DNA from: an uncultured Bacteroidales bacterium
Lineage (GTDB): Bacteria > Bacteroidota > Bacteroidia > Bacteroidales > UBA10428
DNA length: 64,000 nt
Assembly: GCA_964534745.1 (NCBI GenBank)
Contig: CAZHQW010000004.1
Coordinates: 25,376-89,375 of the forward strand
Reading direction: 5' to 3'
Shown: positions 4,662-14,107 of the stretch, piece after piece
Layout of the letters: each line of letters begins with the position of its first letter
Numbering within the stretch: the first letter of the stretch is position 1
Notes under the pieces: model-generated
The model's input: the letters and a program-made list of their open reading frames with translations, nothing else
Told to the model about the DNA's origin: nothing
Databases searched by the model: none
Made by a program: the position numbers and the translations under genes

Positions 4662-4742
4662 TAATACTCCACTGCAATATTATATTTTACTTTTTTTATT
4701 ACTTTTAGCCCTTTTAAAATTTACATTAATTCCCTGGACATA

Positions 4743-6899
4743 ATGACTTCACATATCACCAAAAAAATGACAGGCATCATTTGCCTTGCACTTTTTCTTA
4801 ATGCCTGGAATGTAAAAGGACAAACCTATTATTTGCATCACAATACTCCTTTCAAATATATGGCAGCTATGGAAGAGCCTGATTCCAACTGGTATATGCC
4901 CGGTTTTGACGACTCTTCATGGCCCCAGGATACGGGCCTGGTCGGATTCGGATATGATAACCAGGATGTAACCATTGATAACAGCGCCGCCTCCCTTTAC
5001 CTGAGATACAGGTTCAATGTTACAGACAAATCCAGGGTTGAGGAAATTAACATCTCCTGTAACTATGACGACGGCTACGTGGCATACCTTAACGGGAAAA
5101 AAGTAATAAGCGTTAATGTAAGCGATACTGTTGATGCTCCTGCCTACAACGATGTTACAGTAAGGTCACATGAACAGGAATTCCAGCAATTCCCCGTACT
5201 GGGCTATTATTTTAACCAGCCCCGGCTCGATTCGCTCCTCGTGGACGGACAGAACACCTTTGCCGTACATGTGCTTAATGATACCATAGGCGGTTCGGAC
5301 CTTTTTTTCATGACTTATATGTATAACATCACAGGCATATACTTTAACCTATACAGCAATGCCTTCAGATACAAAAGGCAGGTCAGCCTCGATTCGACCC
5401 TGTTCCCTATAGTTATCATAAATACAGATGAATTTGGTTTACCTTATAAGAACATAAGAAGAAAAGCATATATGGATATTATTGATAACGGGCCCGGCAA
5501 GTACAATAAGCCCTCCGACACGGCCAATGTGTATTCGGGGGATGTATCAATTGAAGTAAGGGGTGAATCGTCAGCCGAATTCCAGAAACGTTCATACAGG
5601 TTCGAAACCATTATCTCTATAGATACGCTGGAAATAGATACTAATGTAGTGCTTCTGGGTATGCCTGCGGATGATGACTGGATATTGCTGGGGCCTTTTC
5701 ATGACAAGGCACAGTTCCGTAACAGCATGATTTTCGATCTCGGCCGCAGGCTCGGCAGTTACCAGGTGCGCAGCAAATACTGCGAATTGATTATGAACGG
5801 TGAGTTTGTCGGTCTCTATTGCCTGTGCGAAAATATAAAAAGGCATCCGCAAAGGGTTAATATTGCAAGGCTTCGTGAAACGGAGATCTCGGGCATAGAT
5901 GTGACGGGAGGTTATATAATGAGACTGGACAAAGACTATAGCGGTGTGCAGATAGTATACCCCAAGGCAGATAATATACAGCCCGAGCAAACTGAATATA
6001 TCTATTCATTCCTGGATACGTTTGCGGCCGTTCTTTACAGCAACTATTTTACAGATCCCGACTCGGGAATCAGGAAATATATGAGCGACACATCCCTGGT
6101 GGATTACCTGGTGATGAATGAGATTACCAAGAATGCCGACGCATACCTGTTCAGCACATACTTTTATAAGGACAGGGCCGATATAGACAACAGGATAAAA
6201 TTCGGCCCCCTGTGGGACTATGACCTGGCTTTCGGAAATACAACATTCCAGGAAGGTAATTTAACATACGGATGGCAGTTTGATTTCAATAACCGCCTGC
6301 CTGTGACCCGTATTCTTCAGGATGTTGCCGTTGTAGATCTGTTCAGGGACCGCTGGCATGAACTGAGGCAGGGCATGCTGCATACCGACTCGATTTTTGC
6401 ACTTATTGACTCCATTGTAGACTATATACATGAGCCTGTCCAGCGTAATTATGAAGTATGGCCGGTCATAGACAAACCCTTGTTTTTTCCTAACTATGTA
6501 TCAGAAACCTATGAAGAAGAAATACTTAATATCAAAAACTGGCTTACCGACCGACTGCAGTGGATAGACGAGAATATTGACGATTTGTATTATCCTGTGG
6601 ATATTTATAGCAGTTCAAACAATAAAGCAGCGGCAGAATATATGGGGTTTGAGGCATATCCAAATCCCTTCTCCGGTGAATTATCACTTTGCTTTAATAG
6701 TTCATACTCGGGTGATCTGAAAATCCAGTTCCGCAATCTTCTCGGGCAGATGAATCTCGAAATTATCACACCCATAACACAGGGTTACAGGGAAATAAAA
6801 CTTGATAGCCGTATCGCGGATATACCTCCGGGAGTATATATAATAAGCGTCACATTGAACTCCAGGATAATCGGCATAAAGAAACTTTTAAAGAAATAA
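4743..6899 (+). CDS. CotH kinase family protein with N-terminal beta-sandwich and T9SS C-terminal sorting domain
   Basis: RGESS..F.KRSY, GPLWDYDLAFGN, W...RL.WID; CTD YPNPF...GVYII. Confidence 0.85.
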   Translation: MTSHITKKMTGIICLALFLNAWNVKGQTYYLHHNTPFKYMAAMEEPDSNWYMPGFDDSSWPQDTGLVGFGYDNQDVTIDNSAASLYLRYRFNVTDKSRVEEINISCNYDDGYVAYLNGKKVISVNVSDTVDAPAYNDVTVRSHEQEFQQFPVLGYYFNQPRLDSLLVDGQNTFAVHVLNDTIGGSDLFFMTYMYNITGIYFNLYSNAFRYKRQVSLDSTLFPIVIINTDEFGLPYKNIRRKAYMDIIDNGPGKYNKPSDTANVYSGDVSIEVRGESSAEFQKRSYRFETIISIDTLEIDTNVVLLGMPADDDWILLGPFHDKAQFRNSMIFDLGRRLGSYQVRSKYCELIMNGEFVGLYCLCENIKRHPQRVNIARLRETEISGIDVTGGYIMRLDKDYSGVQIVYPKADNIQPEQTEYIYSFLDTFAAVLYSNYFTDPDSGIRKYMSDTSLVDYLVMNEITKNADAYLFSTYFYKDRADIDNRIKFGPLWDYDLAFGNTTFQEGNLTYGWQFDFNNRLPVTRILQDVAVVDLFRDRWHELRQGMLHTDSIFALIDSIVDYIHEPVQRNYEVWPVIDKPLFFPNYVSETYEEEILNIKNWLTDRLQWIDENIDDLYYPVDIYSSSNNKAAAEYMGFEAYPNPFSGELSLCFNSSYSGDLKIQFRNLLGQMNLEIITPITQGYREIKLDSRIADIPPGVYIISVTLNSRIIGIKKLLKK

Positions 6900-6918
6900 A
6901 TTATTCAGTCCGTATAAT

Positions 6919-6954
6919 ACATCCGAAGTCCGATTTTCGGCTTCAGGCGGATGT
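6919..6954. terminator. compound hairpin after cotH (terminator or REP-like)
   Basis: acatccg/cggatgt outer stem around a gaag-t-ccga-ttt-tcgg-cttc inner stem. Confidence 0.5.
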
Positions 6955-6994
6955 TTAAGTTATTCCTGCCGGTGATAAACAATACTGTAATAAA

Positions 6995-7029
6995 TGATGT
7001 AAATCATACTGGTCTGATGATGTATATCA
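6995..7029. promoter_or_regulatory. two tandem FNR/CRP-type boxes
   Basis: TGAT-gtaa-ATCA (6995-7006) and TGAT-gtat-ATCA (7018-7029), centres 23 bp apart. Confidence 0.65.
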
Positions 7030-7097
7030 CCCTTTAATACTTGACTTCTAGGTGTTTTTTATAGTAGTTTTATTCTTTGAAAACAAACTGCACTACT

Positions 7098-7316
7098 ATG
7101 GAATCAATCGTTCAAACCCCAGCTCAGAAGCTTAAAAAAAACAAATGCTTTTCAGGAGACGAACTGGAAAGTTTGGGAATATTTCCGACAAACCTGCAGT
7201 GCTTCACTTTTTACCATTATGTGCTGTATCAGAAAGAGAACAAAAGAATAATTCTTAAACCTCTGCCCCACAATCTGTTCAAGGTAATCAGAGTATATGA
7301 TTTTATAAGCGCCTGA
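7098..7316 (+). CDS. hypothetical small protein (73 aa incl. Met start at 7098 to stop)
   Basis: Fills an otherwise empty gap, ATG at 7098, downstream of the TF boxes; no family recognised. Confidence 0.55.
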   Translation: MESIVQTPAQKLKKNKCFSGDELESLGIFPTNLQCFTFYHYVLYQKENKRIILKPLPHNLFKVIRVYDFISA

Positions 7317-7359
7317 TACTTTTCACACAAGCTCTCATTTATTTTATTCATTTAAAGCA

Positions 7360-7367
7360 TATCTTTG
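7360..7367 (+). promoter_or_regulatory. Bacteroidota -7 promoter box
   Basis: TATCTTTG ending 6 nt before ATG 7374. Confidence 0.6.
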
Positions 7368-7373
7368 CTTTAT

Positions 7374-7832
7374 ATGAATAAAAAGTCCAACAGGTACCTG
7401 AGAATATACCAGCAAATCAAAAAAATCTTCAAGAACACGGATGATTTAACAGCCCGCATGGCAACAATAAATGCCCTGCTGTATCACAAGATGCCCGGCT
7501 TCTTCTGGGCAGGTTTTTATTTGCTAAAAGAAGGAAGGCTGGTCGCAGGTCCTTACCAGGGTCCCCTGGCATGCACAGAGCTTGAAAAAAATAAGGGTGT
7601 GTGCTGGGCTGCAATTAATTCGGGAAAAACAATCATAGTGCCGGATGTAAACAAATTTGAGGGACATATTGCATGCAGCAGGCTTTCAAATTCCGAAATT
7701 GCTGTCCCTGTAAAAAATATGATTAATGAAGTGAAAGGAGTACTCGATATTGACAGTAAAAAGTTAAACAACTTTGACGGTACTGATTCTATAGAGCTGG
7801 AAAAGATTGTTGGTCTGCTTTATAATGTTTAG
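7374..7832 (+). CDS. msrC: GAF-domain free methionine-R-sulfoxide reductase (fRMsr)
   Basis: WAGFYL, GPYQGPLAC, GVC, GHIAC...SEIAVP, VLDIDS; three family Cys present. Confidence 0.8.
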   Translation: MNKKSNRYLRIYQQIKKIFKNTDDLTARMATINALLYHKMPGFFWAGFYLLKEGRLVAGPYQGPLACTELEKNKGVCWAAINSGKTIIVPDVNKFEGHIACSRLSNSEIAVPVKNMINEVKGVLDIDSKKLNNFDGTDSIELEKIVGLLYNV

Positions 7833-7854
7833 ATAATACAGGCGGATGCTCCAA

Positions 7855-8226
7855 TCACTTTTTGATAAAAGCTTCAAGCATATTCATAATCTTCTGCACT
7901 GAGTATGGCTTGGTCAGCAACTGATCAAAACCCACGTCTTTATAATTATCGAAGAATATCTTTGGATTATGTGCCGTGAGCGCCACAATAGGTATGTTAT
8001 TTTTGGGAGGTACCATCATTCGCCTTATATGCCTCGTTGCTTCAATACCATTCATCACAGGCATTTCGATATCCATCAGTATCAGGTTAATATCATCATT
8101 TGTCATCAGTGACTCGATAGCTATCTTGCCATTCTCAGCTTCGAGATGTTCGTGGCCCAGATCCTCAACTATTTCTGATAACAATAACCTGTTTGTAAAA
8201 ATATCGTCCGTTATTAGGATTTTCAT
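7855..8226 (-). CDS. single-domain response regulator (REC)
   Basis: ITDD, ILMDIEMPVMNG, ALTA, TKP. Confidence 0.92.
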   Translation of the reverse strand: MKILITDDIFTNRLLLSEIVEDLGHEHLEAENGKIAIESLMTNDDINLILMDIEMPVMNGIEATRHIRRMMVPPKNNIPIVALTAHNPKIFFDNYKDVGFDQLLTKPYSVQKIMNMLEAFIKK

Positions 8227-8252
8227 TTTTTGCCAGTATTAATTATTAATAT

Positions 8253-8930
8253 TCAGCCCAACTGACTGAGGGTTTTGATTATATTTATACTGTTTATTGT
8301 AACCCTGGCACCCTCCAGATTTATTATCTTATCATGTTTAAACTCAGCCAGGGTCCTTATAAAGCTCTCCTTGGTCGTACCCGCCAGTTCTGCAAGTTCC
8401 TTCCTGGTAAAAGGGAATTCGAATTCATCGCTTTTATACAGTATTTCCGAGAAATACAATATGACATCTGCAATACGGCCAGGCAGCTGTTTATGGGACT
8501 GACTCATTAGCCTTTCAAAGATGAACAGTCCGTCATTACTGATAAGGCTTATGATCTTTAGTGTAAACTCCCCGTTAGTCTTAAGTACCTTATTAAAAAC
8601 ATCGATATCAATAAAACATATTTCCGACGGATGAATTGCTGAAGCCGAATACTGGTGCATATCTCCACCGTAAATGGACATAAGCCCCAGAAAATCGTCA
8701 GGCATAGCTATTCTCAGAATTATATACTTGTTGTTCCTTCCTTCCTTGAATATTTTAATCAGTCCGGACTTAACAAACATTATGTGGGATGTGCGGGTAT
8801 TCTGCCTGAATATAACTTCCTTTTTATCATATTTCACAACATTGCTATGTTGCAAAATTTCTTCAACCTCTTCCTCACCGAGACAACTGCTAAACGGTAT
8901 TACATAACCTTTATCACTAATTACGACCAT
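8253..8930 (-). CDS. Crp/Fnr family transcriptional regulator
   Basis: cNMP-binding-fold barrel, GRIA, HTH TRKELAELAGTTKESFIRTL. Confidence 0.92.
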   Translation of the reverse strand: MVVISDKGYVIPFSSCLGEEEVEEILQHSNVVKYDKKEVIFRQNTRTSHIMFVKSGLIKIFKEGRNNKYIILRIAMPDDFLGLMSIYGGDMHQYSASAIHPSEICFIDIDVFNKVLKTNGEFTLKIISLISNDGLFIFERLMSQSHKQLPGRIADVILYFSEILYKSDEFEFPFTRKELAELAGTTKESFIRTLAEFKHDKIINLEGARVTINSINIIKTLSQLG

Positions 8931-8997
8931 AATGATATATCTAATAACTTTAAATAAATATAATAAAAATTGTTGACTGATTAAAATATTTAATTAA

Positions 8998-9023
8998 AAA
9001 AAGGTGATATATATCACCTTTTT
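8998..9023. promoter_or_regulatory. perfect 26-bp palindrome containing an FNR-type box
   Basis: aaaaaggTGATatatATCAccttttt between the divergent crp/fnr and REC genes. Confidence 0.75.
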
Positions 9024-9185
9024 CAGTGCATTCCCCTGTATTGAGCCAGAATATGGCTAAGGGGCCAGATTATTTGCCAATATTTACTATGGCTTTGCCA
9101 ATTATATAATATTTTTATATGTATTTGGTTTTATATATTAAATTTTTTATAACTTTAATATAACATAATTGAGGGGCTGAAAGTA

Positions 9186-9569
9186 ATGAAACTTAAGAAA
9201 GATAATTATTTACTTATTGTTGATGATTCCACTACCAATGTAGTTTTACTGGAAGCTGTCTTTGACGAGAAGGGATATAAGATTGAAACCGCCTTTAGCG
9301 CAAAAGAGGCTTTCGGAATAATCGAAAAACAAACTCCCGACCTTATTTTACTGGATTTGTTAATGCCAAAGATAAACGGATTTGATTTTCTCAGGCAGCT
9401 AAGGAGGAAGAAAGCTACAAGGGACACTCCTGTTATTGTAATTTCAGCTGCAACTGACGAAGAGAATGTCCACAGAATAATGGAAATGGGAGCAGTTGAT
9501 TTCATTAAAAAGCCTATTGATCTTGACTATCTGGTAGAGAAGGTTGAATCTGTCTTAATCAAGAAGTGA
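9186..9569 (+). CDS. single-domain response regulator (REC)
   Basis: IVDD, ILLDLLMPKING, ISA, KKP. Confidence 0.92.
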   Translation: MKLKKDNYLLIVDDSTTNVVLLEAVFDEKGYKIETAFSAKEAFGIIEKQTPDLILLDLLMPKINGFDFLRQLRRKKATRDTPVIVISAATDEENVHRIMEMGAVDFIKKPIDLDYLVEKVESVLIKK

Positions 9570-9637
9570 TTGATAGCCCCTATATCAGCTGTTAATATTA
9601 ATATTCCTTTCATCCCCGCATAATTGAATTTAATCAT

Positions 9638-9645
9638 TACCTTTG
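9638..9645 (+). promoter_or_regulatory. Bacteroidota -7 promoter box
   Basis: TACCTTTG upstream of REC gene 9708. Confidence 0.55.
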
Positions 9646-9707
9646 GTTAGTTCCCCTAATAAAAACAACTATACCCAGCGAATTTCGTTATATATTAATA
9701 ACAAATT

Positions 9708-10082
9708 ATGGGCAAAATGAAAAGGGTCTTAATAGTTGATGACAACATGATGATGCGCAGGCTTATCAGAAATGTCTTCAGAAATGAGAGATTTGATATT
9801 ATGGAGGCAAAGAACGGAATGGAGGGCCTTCATCTTGCCAACCAGAACTCCTTTGACGTTGTAATAACCGATATAGTTATGCCTGAAATGGAAGGTATTC
9901 AGTTCATAATTGAACTGAGAAAGATTGCACCCCGAATAAAAATAGTGGCAATATCAGGAGGCAGGCCCTACTATCTTTATGTGGCTAAAAAGCTCGGAAT
10001 AGAAGCCATATTTACGAAACCCCTGAATCATCTTGAATTCGTAAATACAGTGAAAAAGATTGCATACAACCACCAGTCATAA
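9708..10082 (+). CDS. single-domain response regulator (REC)
   Basis: IVDD, VITDIVMPEMEG, ISGG, TKP. Confidence 0.92.
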   Translation: MGKMKRVLIVDDNMMMRRLIRNVFRNERFDIMEAKNGMEGLHLANQNSFDVVITDIVMPEMEGIQFIIELRKIAPRIKIVAISGGRPYYLYVAKKLGIEAIFTKPLNHLEFVNTVKKIAYNHQS

Positions 10083-10239
10083 TTCCACAAAAAATCATAT
10101 TGTTAATACAAGCTTCCAAGGTTTAATAAAAAACCGCAGCTTGTTCAATAAAGTTTTATTAAAAATATTATTTTAAAGAAATATTAATTATTTTTAGATA
10201 TAGTCTTTCTGTATTTAAAAGTTATTTAATATTGTCCTC

Positions 10240-12504
10240 ATGGAAAATAAAAAAGAGTCCATTGTCCAATTAACAATTCTGGCTATTATTATTTCTTTGC
10301 TTTTTCCTGTTGCAGCGATATTTATTGATATAATACTCCACGAGAGTTTTTCCTATACTTTGAGTGACTTTATGCGCCTTTATGCTGAAAATCCCATACA
10401 GTACATTATTTTATCGCTTGTAATTATTATTCCCGTGGTCACCTTCTTTTCCATAAGGTATTTTTCAAAAATCATGGATAAGAAGCAGAAAATTATCGAT
10501 TCCGAAAAACACAAGACAAAAAGAATAGAAGAGTTTACAAAAAAACTGATACAGGAAGATTTTTCGCATGATTTCGAAAGTGATAAGGACGATAGTCTTG
10601 GAAAATCATTACTGAATCTAAGGGACAAGTTAAAGGGAAATAAAGAGACCGACCTAAAGAGAAGAAAGGAAGATGAACAAAGGAACTGGACTGCAGAGGG
10701 ACTGGCAAAGTTTGGAGATATACTCAGAAATGAGATAGACAACGTTGAATCACTGTCATTCAGTATTATCAAGGAGCTTACAAATTATATCGATGCAACG
10801 CAGGGAGGGTTTTATCTGCTTAAAAACAGCGACGGCAAGGAGAAGTTTTTTGACATGACAGCGTTCTTTGCCTATGACCGCAAAAAGTTCGCCAATAAAC
10901 AAATCGCCTGGGGTGACGGATTGATAGGTACAAGTGCGGCAGAGAAAAAGTCAATATATGTAACCGATGTTCCCGAGGACTATGTTAGTGTAACATCCGG
11001 ATTGGGATACACAAATCCCAAGTCAATACTGGTTGTTCCATTGATAAAAGATGACAATATTTTCGGAGTTATTGAATTCGCTTCTTTGAATAAAATTGAA
11101 TCCTACCAGCTTGATTTTGTTGAAAAGGTAGCGGAGAATATCGCCTCGACATTATCAATGGCTGAAATAAGCATAAAAACAACCAGGCTGCTTGAGGAAA
11201 CAAAAGCCCAAGCCCAGGCCCTTACCTCACAGGAAGAAGAGATGAGACAGAACATGGAAGAATTACAGGCCACCCAGGAAGAAGCGACAAGACAGGCAGA
11301 AAAGTTTGTGCTTATGGAAAACACGGTAAATCATACCATGATTCGCGCCGAATATGATAAGGAAGGCTACCTTTTGTATGCAAATACCAAGTTTCTCAAT
11401 AAGCTGGGGTATTCAATGACAGAAGAAGTGGAAGGAAAACATATAACTGAATTCATCGGCAAAAAAGACAGGGAATGGTTTAAGGAAATATGGGATAACC
11501 TTGCCAAGGGAGGCAGGCACTTTGAAGGATATATGAAACATATAACAAAGGCAGGAAAGGACCTCTGGACGATGGCGACATATACCTGCATAAGACTTGA
11601 TAATGGTCAGGTGGACAAGATCCTTTTTCTAGCCCTTGATACTACAGAACATAAAAATCTCAGCCTTAAGATGGAAGGTATAATTGAATCGGTGAACCGC
11701 TCAGGTATTAAGATCGAATTTGATATAAACGGTAATATTGCTGATTACAATGAATCATTTCAACATCTGTTCAAATATACTAACACAGATATTACATCCC
11801 TTTCTGTGTTTGATCTTATAAATCCGCTTGAGCTTGAGAGTTTTAACAAAAAGTGGGAAACTGTAATCAAGGGGGTCGGATTCCAGGGACAGTTCAAGGT
11901 TAAAACCAAAAATGACGAGGAAAGATGGATAAGGGGAGCTTTCAGCGTAATATACGACATGTACGGCGATGTAGATAAGATCTTCTTTATCGGCCAGGAT
12001 ATTACAAATGAAAAGAAGATGGAATTAAACCTTAGAGAACAGACTGAAATACTTAGAAACCAGGAAAAGCTGTTGCGTGAATCCAAAAAGGAACTGACAA
12101 GGAAACTGAGGGAAGAAAAGCTTGAAATGAAAAACCAGTATAGTGCAATCGAGAAAGTTAAAAACAGGAATGAAAAGACCCTTGAGGAATTACCGGATGC
12201 AGTAGTGACTATTGGAAGCGATAATAAAATAGTATTCTTTAATAAAGCTGCAGAGAAATTGTGGGGTTATGGCAGAAGTGAGGTCCTCAACCAGGATGTT
12301 GGCATTTTATTCTCAGAAAAGACAATTGACGTGGATGAATTTGTGGCAGCTATTGTTGGACCCGGTGATAATAAGATTATTAATAAAAGGAAAAAAACAA
12401 AGGTACTAACCAAAGACAGGAAAGAAAGGGAAGTAACGATTCTGCTGGCAAGAGCCAGGCTTGAAGACGAGACAACATACACAGCCTTCATAAATTATAT
12501 TTAA
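10240..12504 (+). CDS. membrane sensor: 2 TM, HAMP-like, GAF, coiled coil, three PAS; no output domain
   Basis: Two hydrophobic helices; NW..EGLAKF..ILR GAF start; EEMRQNMEELQATQEE coil; PAS motifs (LYAN..FL, DITNEK, FFNKAAEKLWGY). Confidence 0.8.
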   Translation: MENKKESIVQLTILAIIISLLFPVAAIFIDIILHESFSYTLSDFMRLYAENPIQYIILSLVIIIPVVTFFSIRYFSKIMDKKQKIIDSEKHKTKRIEEFTKKLIQEDFSHDFESDKDDSLGKSLLNLRDKLKGNKETDLKRRKEDEQRNWTAEGLAKFGDILRNEIDNVESLSFSIIKELTNYIDATQGGFYLLKNSDGKEKFFDMTAFFAYDRKKFANKQIAWGDGLIGTSAAEKKSIYVTDVPEDYVSVTSGLGYTNPKSILVVPLIKDDNIFGVIEFASLNKIESYQLDFVEKVAENIASTLSMAEISIKTTRLLEETKAQAQALTSQEEEMRQNMEELQATQEEATRQAEKFVLMENTVNHTMIRAEYDKEGYLLYANTKFLNKLGYSMTEEVEGKHITEFIGKKDREWFKEIWDNLAKGGRHFEGYMKHITKAGKDLWTMATYTCIRLDNGQVDKILFLALDTTEHKNLSLKMEGIIESVNRSGIKIEFDINGNIADYNESFQHLFKYTNTDITSLSVFDLINPLELESFNKKWETVIKGVGFQGQFKVKTKNDEERWIRGAFSVIYDMYGDVDKIFFIGQDITNEKKMELNLREQTEILRNQEKLLRESKKELTRKLREEKLEMKNQYSAIEKVKNRNEKTLEELPDAVVTIGSDNKIVFFNKAAEKLWGYGRSEVLNQDVGILFSEKTIDVDEFVAAIVGPGDNKIINKRKKTKVLTKDRKEREVTILLARARLEDETTYTAFINYI

Positions 12505-12550
12505 AAAGGATTTTCTGCAGAATGCATAGGCCCGGAAAAAAAAGCGGATA

Positions 12551-14107
12551 ATGCAAAAGAAAGATGATTATTGTTACCAGCTATTAAAAGTCCTTGAACT
12601 TGAGAATATTGGATACTGGACAAAAGAAAAGGACAGTGATATAATGCATTTTTCTGAAATGGCGGCGCAAATAATAGGTCTTATGACCGGTGATTTATCC
12701 ATGAAGTTGAATGATTTCCTTGGCAATGTCTATTCAGAAGACAGGCACACCCTTGAGCATTACATTAATGAGCTGCCCGGGGGAAAAGATTTCACCGAGT
12801 GCATCTTTAAGATGATGAGGTTTAATTCGGAAACCAAAGAAGTTATAAATTTATCAACGCGCATAACGAATATCTATGGTTATGACAGCAAGAACCTCCT
12901 TATATTAGGTACTATATCAGACATTACGAAACAGGAAAAACTCAAAAGGGAAGCCCTGAGGATAAAAGAGAAAGCTGAAGAGCTTTACATGCAAAAGAAC
13001 ATATTCCTTGCTAATATCTCACATGAGATAAGGACCCCTATGAACTCGATTGTAGGTTTCTCGGAACTGCTGAATATAGGTAATCTTGATGCCCGCACCC
13101 GCAATGAATACTTTAGAATAATTAAACATCAGGGCCTTCAATTGCAAAAGCTGGTAGATGATATTTCCGAACTGGCAAAATATGAAACAGGCGAGCTGAA
13201 AATCAATAAATCACCATGCAACTTCAATTTATTAATTAACGAGTTATTAATCAGTTTTAACCATCATAAATCCAAACTTAACAAGGATAATGTCACAATA
13301 AAGATTAGTCTGCCGCACAGCGAGGAAATAATAGGGTACACAGATTCGGGAAGGATAACCCAGATATTGTCAAATCTGATAAATACCTCCTTGTATTTCA
13401 CTGACAGGGGAATAATAGAAATAGGTTATTACAAGGCTGATGATAAAAAGTTAATATTCTATGTTAAGGACACGGGAGCCGGTTTTACGGCAGATGAACA
13501 GAAGTATATATTTGACAGACTCTCACAGGTTGAGGAAACGATTATAAAAAAATTTGAGGGACTGGGATTAAGCCTTACCATTTCCAAAGGTCTCGTTAAA
13601 CTGATGGGTGGCAAAATATGGCTGGAATCAGAGCCAGGTTCTGGTACAACATACTACTTTCAGATACCTTATGAGGAACTCCCTCACGATGATACGCCGG
13701 AAGAAATTGAAGAAGCTCCTGTCCTGTCGCAATACAGCTGGAAAGACAGAATAATTATTATAGTTGAGGATGATGAGATAAATTACAGGTTTCTTGAAGC
13801 TGTGCTCCATAACACTGATGCGCGGATCATACATGCCGATAACGGATACCAGGCCATTGACCTTTGCAAATCGATAAATAAGATCGATTTGATACTTATG
13901 GATCTTAAACTGCCTGATATTAGCGGCTTTGATGCAACACTCGAGATCAGGAAGATAAATAAGGACATACCTGTCATAGCACAGACAGCCCTTGTGCTTA
14001 AGGAGGAAAAAGAGAAATGCCTCAAGGCAGGTTGCAATGACATCATTACCAAGCCCATTGAAATAGGTAAGCTTCTCAGACTTATAAACAAATATCTTAG
14101 TGAATAG
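12551..14107 (+). CDS. cytoplasmic hybrid histidine kinase-receiver with degenerate ATP-binding motifs
   Basis: H-box FLANISHEIRTPMN, G1 DTGAG, REC ILMDLKLP...KP; N-box reads NLINTSLYFT and G2 reads GLGLS. Confidence 0.85.
   Translation: MQKKDDYCYQLLKVLELENIGYWTKEKDSDIMHFSEMAAQIIGLMTGDLSMKLNDFLGNVYSEDRHTLEHYINELPGGKDFTECIFKMMRFNSETKEVINLSTRITNIYGYDSKNLLILGTISDITKQEKLKREALRIKEKAEELYMQKNIFLANISHEIRTPMNSIVGFSELLNIGNLDARTRNEYFRIIKHQGLQLQKLVDDISELAKYETGELKINKSPCNFNLLINELLISFNHHKSKLNKDNVTIKISLPHSEEIIGYTDSGRITQILSNLINTSLYFTDRGIIEIGYYKADDKKLIFYVKDTGAGFTADEQKYIFDRLSQVEETIIKKFEGLGLSLTISKGLVKLMGGKIWLESEPGSGTTYYFQIPYEELPHDDTPEEIEEAPVLSQYSWKDRIIIIVEDDEINYRFLEAVLHNTDARIIHADNGYQAIDLCKSINKIDLILMDLKLPDISGFDATLEIRKINKDIPVIAQTALVLKEEKEKCLKAGCNDIITKPIEIGKLLRLINKYLSE

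Follow-up and report, generated by a model that had tools for sequence, protein, structure and literature searches.

The window analysed here is a 64,000-nucleotide stretch of DNA from an uncultured Bacteroidales bacterium (contig CAZHQW010000004.1), in which a gene for a Crp/Fnr-family transcription regulator (hereafter crp) lies beside three copies of the palindromic pattern TGATNNNNATCA (TGAT-N4-ATCA). Comparison with related genomes suggests, with a probability that we put at roughly 85%, that the three boxes are operator sites of this adjacent regulator (8253–8930). The crp gene and a downstream stand-alone receiver (REC) gene form a minus-strand unit that is convergent with two plus-strand genes, one for a protein of 72 amino acids (aa) and one for a GAF-domain protein. 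The features of the locus are as follows.

6995–7006: box 1, distal member of a tandem pair, TGATGTAAATCA; centre 97.5 bp before the ATG at 7098, predicted at about −76.5
7018–7029: box 2, proximal member of the pair, TGATGTATATCA, core of GATGATGTATATCACC; centre 74.5 bp before the same ATG, predicted at about −53.5
7041–7072, plus strand: predicted core promoter of the small gene, cTTGAc (TTG at 7041–7043, −33-like) and TAGTTTTA (7065–7072, −7-like)
7098–7316, plus strand: gene for the 72-aa orphan protein, putative conserved target; kept among relatives, without a Pfam domain
7374–7832, plus strand: GAF-domain protein resembling free methionine-R-sulfoxide reductase (fRMsr-like); PF13185 match
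7855–8226, minus strand: stand-alone REC, second gene of the crp operon; PF00072, 76.6 bits
8253–8930, minus strand: Crp/Fnr-family regulator, 225 aa, presumed binder of the boxes; PF00027 and PF13545
8956–8963, minus strand: predicted −7 box of the crp promoter, TATATTTA; 48.5 bp from the centre of box 3
8998–9023: perfect 26-bp palindrome around box 3, AAAAAGGTGATATATATCACCTTTTT, between the divergent crp and REC9186 starts
9005–9016: box 3, TGATATATATCA; centre 80.5 bp before the crp ATG, predicted at about −59.5
9186–9569, plus strand: REC (REC9186), first gene of the divergent signalling operon 9186–14107 (this and the next three genes by domain scan)
9708–10082, plus strand: second REC of the divergent operon
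10240–12504, plus strand: GAF-3xPAS protein of the divergent operon
12551–14107, plus strand: hybrid histidine kinase of the divergent operon
Candidate operator DNA of the regulator, written out: GGTGATATATATCACC

Boxes 1 and 2 lie in a 198-bp intergenic stretch between a CotH gene with a type IX secretion system (T9SS) tail, which ends at 6899, and the 72-aa open reading frame (ORF); the divergent intergenic region between crp and REC9186, which holds box 3, is 255 bp long. The pattern matches exactly three times in the 64,000 bases (at 6995, 7018 and 9005), and all three matches fall within the 453 intergenic bases (6900–7097 and 8931–9185) beside the crp unit. An earlier, sequence-only reading of this DNA had described two boxes before the 7098 ORF and one as the core of a 26-bp palindrome, and exact matching recovers the same three sites. 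Dinucleotide shuffles of the window contain 2.16 matches on average, and 36 of 100 contain at least three, so that the count alone is not significant. The placement is: only ∼0.015 matches are expected in 453 intergenic bases, close to the earlier estimate of ∼0.02 in ∼450. A weight matrix derived from 60 orthologous sites of other genomes ranks the boxes first to third in the window, with scores of 24.0 bits for box 3 (of a possible 24.8), 22.5 bits for box 2 and 13.7 bits for box 1; the next site scores 9.5 bits, a gap of more than 4 bits. A one-mismatch box between the two REC genes (9625–9636, TGAATTTAATCA) was not counted, as its matrix score falls below the top 25 of the window. Two related loci (L011 and L021) carry exact boxes at the place that matches window position 9625, and the window copy may be a decayed site.

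Motif tests covered the window and 84 related loci. A scan of one genome per species yielded 80 loci with relatives of the regulator at 31–87% protein identity, nearly all from uncultured Bacteroidales but including Perlabentimonas gracilis and Alkaliflexus imshenetskii. Seventy-seven had sufficient upstream DNA for the crp-upstream counts, for which the search range was 320 bp. An exact box lies within this range in 54 of the 77, and 17 further loci contain a one-mismatch site, mostly at the orthologous position and typically TGAT-N4-CTCA. Of the 22 loci that carry the 72-aa gene, 20 have an exact box within the 200 bp before it. Twenty-one loci show an upstream match, and nearly all of these place their boxes at about −97 and/or −75 from the ATG, as the window does; most of the 21 have a box at the position of box 1 (−95.5 to −99.5). 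The 23-bp spacing between the two boxes likewise recurs (L001–L005, L007, L008, L010, L014, L017 and L021). Apart from promoter-like elements, the remaining intergenic DNA is neither alignable nor conserved among the loci.

Exact boxes number 123 across the 80 loci, whereas base composition predicts 18.9. In 594 kb the 16-bp weight matrix finds 119 sites that score 13 bits or more; with few exceptions these lie between crp and REC, ahead of the small gene, or before one further cluster gene that encodes a 565–605-aa protein without a Pfam domain. The four extra loci, retrieved independently via three distant homologs of the small protein, again contain the module, and in them three promoters carry one box each. 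The sequence-only reading took the boxes for sites of the adjacent Crp/Fnr gene in a local regulon and tied this to their conservation upstream of orthologs; the counts support it, and for the 64-kb window that was scanned the predicted regulon is local.

Two cultured strains carry the boxed Crp module, Perlabentimonas gracilis M08_MB (L064) and Alkaliflexus imshenetskii DSM 15055 (L077); the Alkaliflexus boxes (742 and 765) precede a REC gene ∼3 kb from crp. A metagenome scan for tandem boxes (TGAT-N4-ATCA-N11-TGAT-N4-ATCA) returned 120 stretches, almost all of which are unrelated GC-rich 23-bp repeats or chance matches. It yielded one true ortholog (L106) and one different Crp paralog (L103), and there were no new regulon members among the 120 stretches. 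The near-identical 23-bp tandem units (TGATCGGCATCACTTCGGAATCG...) are common to many GC-rich soil and freshwater contigs (L087, L099, L107, L141, L152, L173, L180, L186, L189 and others) and form an unrelated repeat family.

A motif logo from the 66 crp-upstream sites gives a 16-bp palindrome, G-R-TGAT-wTAn-ATCA-Y-C, whose 5′ flank is rich in A and whose 3′ flank is rich in T. Several of its positions played no part in site selection and are nonetheless strongly biased: G occupies position −1 in 53 of 66 sites, position 0 is A in 42 and G in 24 (T and C in none), position 6 is T in 64, position 7 is A in 54, position 13 is C or T in all 66, and position 14 is C in 50. The two flanks vary independently. 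In 19 of 65 sites an A at position 0 faces a C at position 13, and spacer pairs are essentially random, a pattern that fits separate reading by the two subunits of a dimer and not selection for a hairpin. Abutting pairs of boxes, 23 bp from centre to centre, precede the small gene; 17 loci also have such a pair on the crp side, and on the REC9186 side a pair occurs whose second box is a degenerate TGAGCAAACTCA.

TGA-N6-TCA palindromes are the Crp/Fnr family's hallmark, and an operator of this type is co-located, in silico, with the regulator gene. The E. coli FNR box is TTGAT-N4-ATCAA, and the sequence-only reading accordingly called the sites FNR-type. The core is indeed present, but the label is arbitrary: the E. 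coli CRP consensus, AAATGTGATCTAGATCACATTT, also contains TGAT-N4-ATCA. The site is thus a generic family palindrome, and its flanks match neither CRP nor FNR. That the outer T/A has been lost, as the same reading held, agrees with the absence of T from all 66 sites.

The recognition helix, T-K-E-S-F-I-R, aligns with T-V-E-T-I-S-R of FNR and S-R-E-T-V-G-R of CRP. It retains the Glu and the Arg (E188...R192), replaces the FNR Ser with Ile, and has Lys187 at the position equivalent to CRP R180. Rodionov et al. found that residue 180 co-varies with motif position 3, Arg going with G and Ser or Pro with T (PMC1274295). Lys187 together with a purine at motif position 3 fits this rule. The helix had earlier been read as ESFIR without the FNR Ser, which is correct (T-K-E-S-F-I-R-T), and the missing Ser had been taken to fit the loss of the outer base. 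That account captures the absence of T; it leaves aside that the base is replaced by a purine after a G, which Lys187 fits at least as well and explains more directly than the missing Ser alone. The different paralog on metagenome contig L103, which carries two other Crp/Fnr paralogs (ORFs 750–1439 on the plus strand and 1518–2210 on the minus strand), combines an R-E-S-V-T-R helix with an N-terminal Cys cluster (C8, C11 and C16). It is preceded by tandem TGTGAT-N4-ATCAC boxes 23 bp apart (679–713), which fits the R180 rule.

The regulator matches the cyclic nucleotide monophosphate (cNMP)-binding-type beta-barrel PF00027 over residues 32–119 (63.3 bits, cut-off 27.5) and the Crp-type helix-turn-helix (HTH) PF13545 over residues 151–214 (47.7 bits, cut-off 27), and it aligns over its full length with CRP, FNR and 2GAU chains. 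The recognition helix and its surroundings, ELAELAGTTKES[F/L/I]IRT..EFKHDKII (starting with GTTKES), are invariant in 75 orthologs at overall identities down to 40%. The sensor domain is loosely conserved and contains no Cys, His or Met that is invariant among the orthologs. As previously noted, the protein has only two Cys; these are C16 and C105, kept in 12 and 17 of 77 sequences, respectively, and many orthologs are Cys-free. The earlier view that an FNR-type 4Fe-4S sensor is unlikely is strengthened accordingly: because both residues are poorly kept and many orthologs lack Cys altogether, sequence comparison excludes an FNR-type cluster or any Cys-based sensor for this regulator.

In CRP, E72, R82 and S83 (E. 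coli numbering) contact cyclic AMP (cAMP). When the regulator is aligned with CRP chains by HMMER, it has L, H and Q there instead. Since it lacks both iron-sulfur ligands and the cAMP contacts of CRP, its input is firmly predicted to be neither oxygen sensed through a cluster nor cAMP. The protein also falls below the cut-offs of all NCBIfam subfamily models considered (CRP, FNR, FtrB, FixK, FnrL, YeiL and NtcA) by a wide margin; for example, it scores 49.7 bits against a cut-off of 228 for the FNR model NF008365 and 53.3 bits against 266 for the CRP equivalog NF008732. A literature search found no published Bacteroidetes Crp/Fnr subfamily with this motif. We consider the regulator a member of an uncharacterised Crp/Fnr subfamily, in which a fast-evolving sensor domain stands beside a frozen DNA-binding domain.

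Sigma-A promoters of Bacteroidota carry a −7 box, TAnnTTTG, at −12 to −5 (PMC9723704), and we predicted transcription start sites (TSSs) from their distance to conserved TAnnTTTR elements. For the small gene, cTTGAc and TAGTTTTA are conserved columns in an ungapped comparison of 20 upstream regions; the predicted TSS lies near 7077, with boxes 1 and 2 centred at about −76.5 and −53.5, respectively. On the crp side, where each locus has at most one match, the distance from box to TAnnTTTR element is either 46.5–52.5 bp (47 matches) or 21.5–26.5 bp (12 matches). The ∼48.5-bp spacing of the window and most loci would put the box at about −59.5, often with a degenerate box or half-site 23–27 bp closer, and the ∼24.5-bp spacing of the 12 loci would put the box centre at about −36.5. 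On the REC9186 side, 23 relatives have a box exactly 63.5 bp before the −7 box (about −75.5) and a degenerate box 23 bp further on (about −52.5), nearly the same geometry as that of the small gene. The −7 candidates for REC9186 in the window itself lie 99.5 and 139.5 bp from box 3, and the best of them is TAACTTTA (9150–9157). Because this best candidate is ∼140 bp away, direct control of the REC9186 operon by box 3 is uncertain in the window; it is clearer in the relatives.

All boxes are upstream of or at the −33 region of the TAnnTTTR elements, and none lies between a −7 box and the start codon. From this arrangement we infer that the regulator, binding as one or two dimers ahead of the core promoter, probably activates the small gene and, in relatives, the REC operon, although we would not put the odds far above even. 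For autoregulation, class-II-type activation and occlusion of the −33 element both fit the −36.5 position. A perfect TAnnTTTG, TATCTTTG (7360–7367), ends 6 nucleotides before the ATG (7374) of the fRMsr-like gene, which may therefore have its own promoter, with a very short leader if TATCTTTG is used; it may also be co-transcribed with the small gene. We rejected the fRMsr-like GAF gene as a core target, since it is absent from the closest relatives (L001, L002, L005, L007 and L008) and has TATCTTTG of its own.

These features suggest a simple scheme. A dimer of the regulator would recognise the 16-bp palindrome, G-R-TGAT-(w-T-A-n)-ATCA-Y-C, between A/T tracts. Through box 3, which lies in the crp promoter region, the regulator would control its own crp-REC operon; in many relatives this box would also serve the divergent REC-led signalling operon, a possible third target. 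The abutting boxes 1 and 2, 23 bp apart, most probably recruit two dimers cooperatively, leading to activation of the small gene.

Several points weigh against the assignment of the boxes to the neighbouring regulator. The upstream box is missing in a few orthologs (L027–L029, and L010 and L014 on the crp side), and box 1 taken alone (13.7 bits) scores within the range of shuffled sequences, whose maximum is 17.1. What the comparisons show is that the boxes exist, where they lie and that they are conserved, along with the motif, the invariant helix and the lack of conserved Cys; binding by the regulator, the TSS positions and the sign of regulation are all inferences. A Crp/Fnr paralog encoded elsewhere could be the binder, the regulon could extend beyond the 64-kb window, and the box at about −36.5 in one clade suits repression as well as class-II-type activation. 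This last point leads to the most serious rival, in which the boxes do function but serve repression, the regulator shutting down its own gene and keeping the small gene off until a signal arrives. In the 12 distant orthologs the single box is centred 21.5–26.5 bp before the −7 TA, over the −33 position, and in several of them the box spacer itself contains TTTG; divergently transcribed regulators, moreover, often repress themselves. Yet the boxes of the small gene and of the REC9186 side, at about −53 and −76, stand clear of the −33 and −7 elements in the geometry of CRP and FNR activators, no box falls between a −7 box and an ATG, and most studied Crp/Fnr members act primarily as activators. 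We regard repression as a real but minority possibility.

It is considerably less probable that a different protein, either another Crp/Fnr paralog or an unrelated dimeric factor, binds the boxes and that crp is a target only. Bacteroidales do encode several Crp/Fnr paralogs (e.g., three in P. gingivalis, PMC12040651). However, the box tracks this ortholog group in more than 60 genomes whose neighbouring genes differ, from Che-like genes with STAS, Hpt and CheW (L018 and L064) to a PHO4-type transporter and a gamma-glutamyltranspeptidase (L038); the frozen helix matches the frozen motif; and the L103 paralog, with its R-E-S-V-T-R helix, has the TGTGAT-type boxes that the R180 rule predicts. 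A nucleic-acid hairpin around box 3, such as a bidirectional intrinsic terminator or an attenuator, is less credible again, even though both strands of the 26-bp palindrome fold well (−11.7 and −12.8 kcal/mol; z about −5.6) and each has a U tract following the stem. It sits between divergent gene starts with nothing upstream to terminate, it is not listed in the terminator scan, and boxes 1 and 2 have the core without the long stem; the mismatched flanks of its orthologs (A opposite C in 19 of 65) imply that selection does not maintain the pairing. As for chance, an AT-rich, 8-base palindromic pattern could cluster at random in intergenic DNA that is itself AT-rich, and this might account for the bare number of matches, which 36 of 100 shuffles equal or exceed. 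It does not account for three matches where ∼0.015–0.02 are expected in 453 intergenic bases, for positions kept in dozens of genomes, or for informative flanks that were not used in selection, and we consider it refuted. Operator function for the adjacent regulator remains the reading that we favour.

The putative target of the tandem boxes is a real gene. Its 72-aa product shows 57–86% identity across 19 loci, and 20 aligned sequences have a mean column identity of 78%, with C17, P30, T31, C35, F36, R50, P55, P57 and R65 invariant, which points to strong constraint. The protein matches no Pfam or NCBIfam model, and its 105 homologs are all annotated as hypothetical, none with a Pfam domain. 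A profile search of 1.84 billion representative proteins retrieved only six matching clusters, among them an 808-aa Cys-rich repeat protein that we judged a spurious match. In all four loci retrieved from the three distant homologs, the small gene adjoined the crp module. A confident AlphaFold2 (AF2) model (predicted local distance difference test score, pLDDT, 82) consists of one helix and a three-stranded sheet, and a fold search with it returned no solved fold better than E = 0.39; resemblances to RelE/ParE-like folds and to AFV1 ORF-99 were weak and were rejected as non-significant.

Receiver genes accompany the regulator closely: 55 of 77 loci have a REC gene immediately after crp, and a divergent REC is present in 71 of 77. 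We conjecture that the regulator is the DNA-binding output of the neighbouring phosphorelay or chemosensory-like cluster and that a phosphorylated stand-alone REC, co-operonic or divergent, and not a small molecule, controls its poorly conserved ‘ligand’ domain. Abutting dimers on boxes 23 bp apart would then activate the 72-aa orphan effector, which would be confined to this module. We hold this idea tentatively and think it much more likely wrong than right. If true, it would be a new coupling of two-component or Che-type signalling to transcription in Bacteroidota. The abutting tandem sites, the contrast between sensor and DNA-binding domains, the near-obligate pairing with stand-alone receivers, and the orphan target are unusual traits of this subfamily.

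Other neighbours vary. In many relatives, the 565–605-aa protein without a Pfam match is a coiled-coil protein that replaces the GAF/PAS gene of the window, often with a box ∼70–100 bp upstream (L018:1024–2724, minus strand; L064:1477–3294, minus strand; L081–L084 from ∼7082, plus strand). It contains a conserved ITNLQ[FY][QH]DI[LI]RQ..EHVQ segment, whose D-x-x-x-Q we take to recall the CheZ active-site motif, and is followed by STAS, REC, Hpt/CheA-like and CheW genes. The clade with the TINEFKHDKII helix (L038:983–3283, minus strand, and 4690–6381, plus strand) has lost the co-operonic REC; after its divergent REC comes a 766-aa PHO4-family transporter-like protein, and after its crp a gamma-glutamyltranspeptidase. 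Upstream of the small gene, relatives have a DUF6588 gene where the window has CotH, and L018 has an ISL3 transposase fragment as well (L018:6055–6609 and L018:6947–8026; L081–L084, 2400–3552); the outer edge of the module is variable. Just past the CotH gene of the window, at 6923–6940, lies a terminator-like hairpin, CCGAAAATCGGACTTCGG, listed for the minus strand only. The DNA runs that contain the locus are salt-marsh metagenomes; none of the RNA runs queried for the locus contains it.

The result is a routine comparative-genomics regulon prediction and not a new mechanism. It provides a widespread Crp/Fnr subfamily of sediment Bacteroidales with a defined operator, often in abutting pairs spaced by 23 bp, and predicts a defined minimal regulon: the regulator's own operon, the REC-led signalling operon and the orphan 72-aa gene. 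It also extends the family's residue-to-base code by one case, in which a Lys at the R180 position goes with a purine, and flags a tight pairing of Crp and receiver genes, for which P. gracilis is a cultured carrier.

Among known systems, FNR belongs to the same superfamily and shares the core TGAT-N4-ATCA (as do the sites of DNR and FixK), the E-x-x-x-R helix, and sites upstream of or at the promoter. In FNR, the helix E-T-I-S-R reads an outer T; the corresponding helix here is E-S-F-I-R, with Ser212 of FNR replaced by Ile and Val208 by Lys, all 66 sites have A or G, never T, as the outer base, and the Cys cluster is absent. The regulator resembles CRP in the G variant of its site, GTGAT...ATCAC, in the A- and T-tract flanks, in a helix that opens with a basic residue and then Glu (R-E in CRP, K-E here), and in class-I-like upstream box positions. 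It differs from CRP in that the outermost base is G, not T, and that position 0 is more often A than G. To our knowledge, abutting tandem sites 23 bp apart are not the usual CRP arrangement.

The closest solved structure is that of P. gingivalis CrpPg (PG0396, PDB 2GAU; E = 7.7e-18), which at only 68 bits is a distant relative. CrpPg is an unclassified Bacteroidales Crp homolog that is reported to bind DNA without cAMP or any other tested ligand (PMC12040651). Its helix, T-V-S-N-A-I-R, lacks the Glu found in T-K-E-S-F-I-R of our regulator, so that a different site is expected, and CrpPg is reported to be a global regulator that is not tied to a REC gene, unlike the regulator described here. 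HcpR2 of Bacteroides, Clostridium and Thermotogales, which recognises GTAAC-N4-GTTAC (PMC1274295), likewise lacks the FNR cysteines and has a predicted regulon of about one adjacent operon, established by the same comparative-genomics logic (PMC1274295). It differs in its motif, in a helix with Pro at position 181, in being a heme/NO (nitric oxide) sensor, and in its hcp target; the regulator described here has no conserved heme ligand, and its predicted targets are an orphan small gene and signalling genes.

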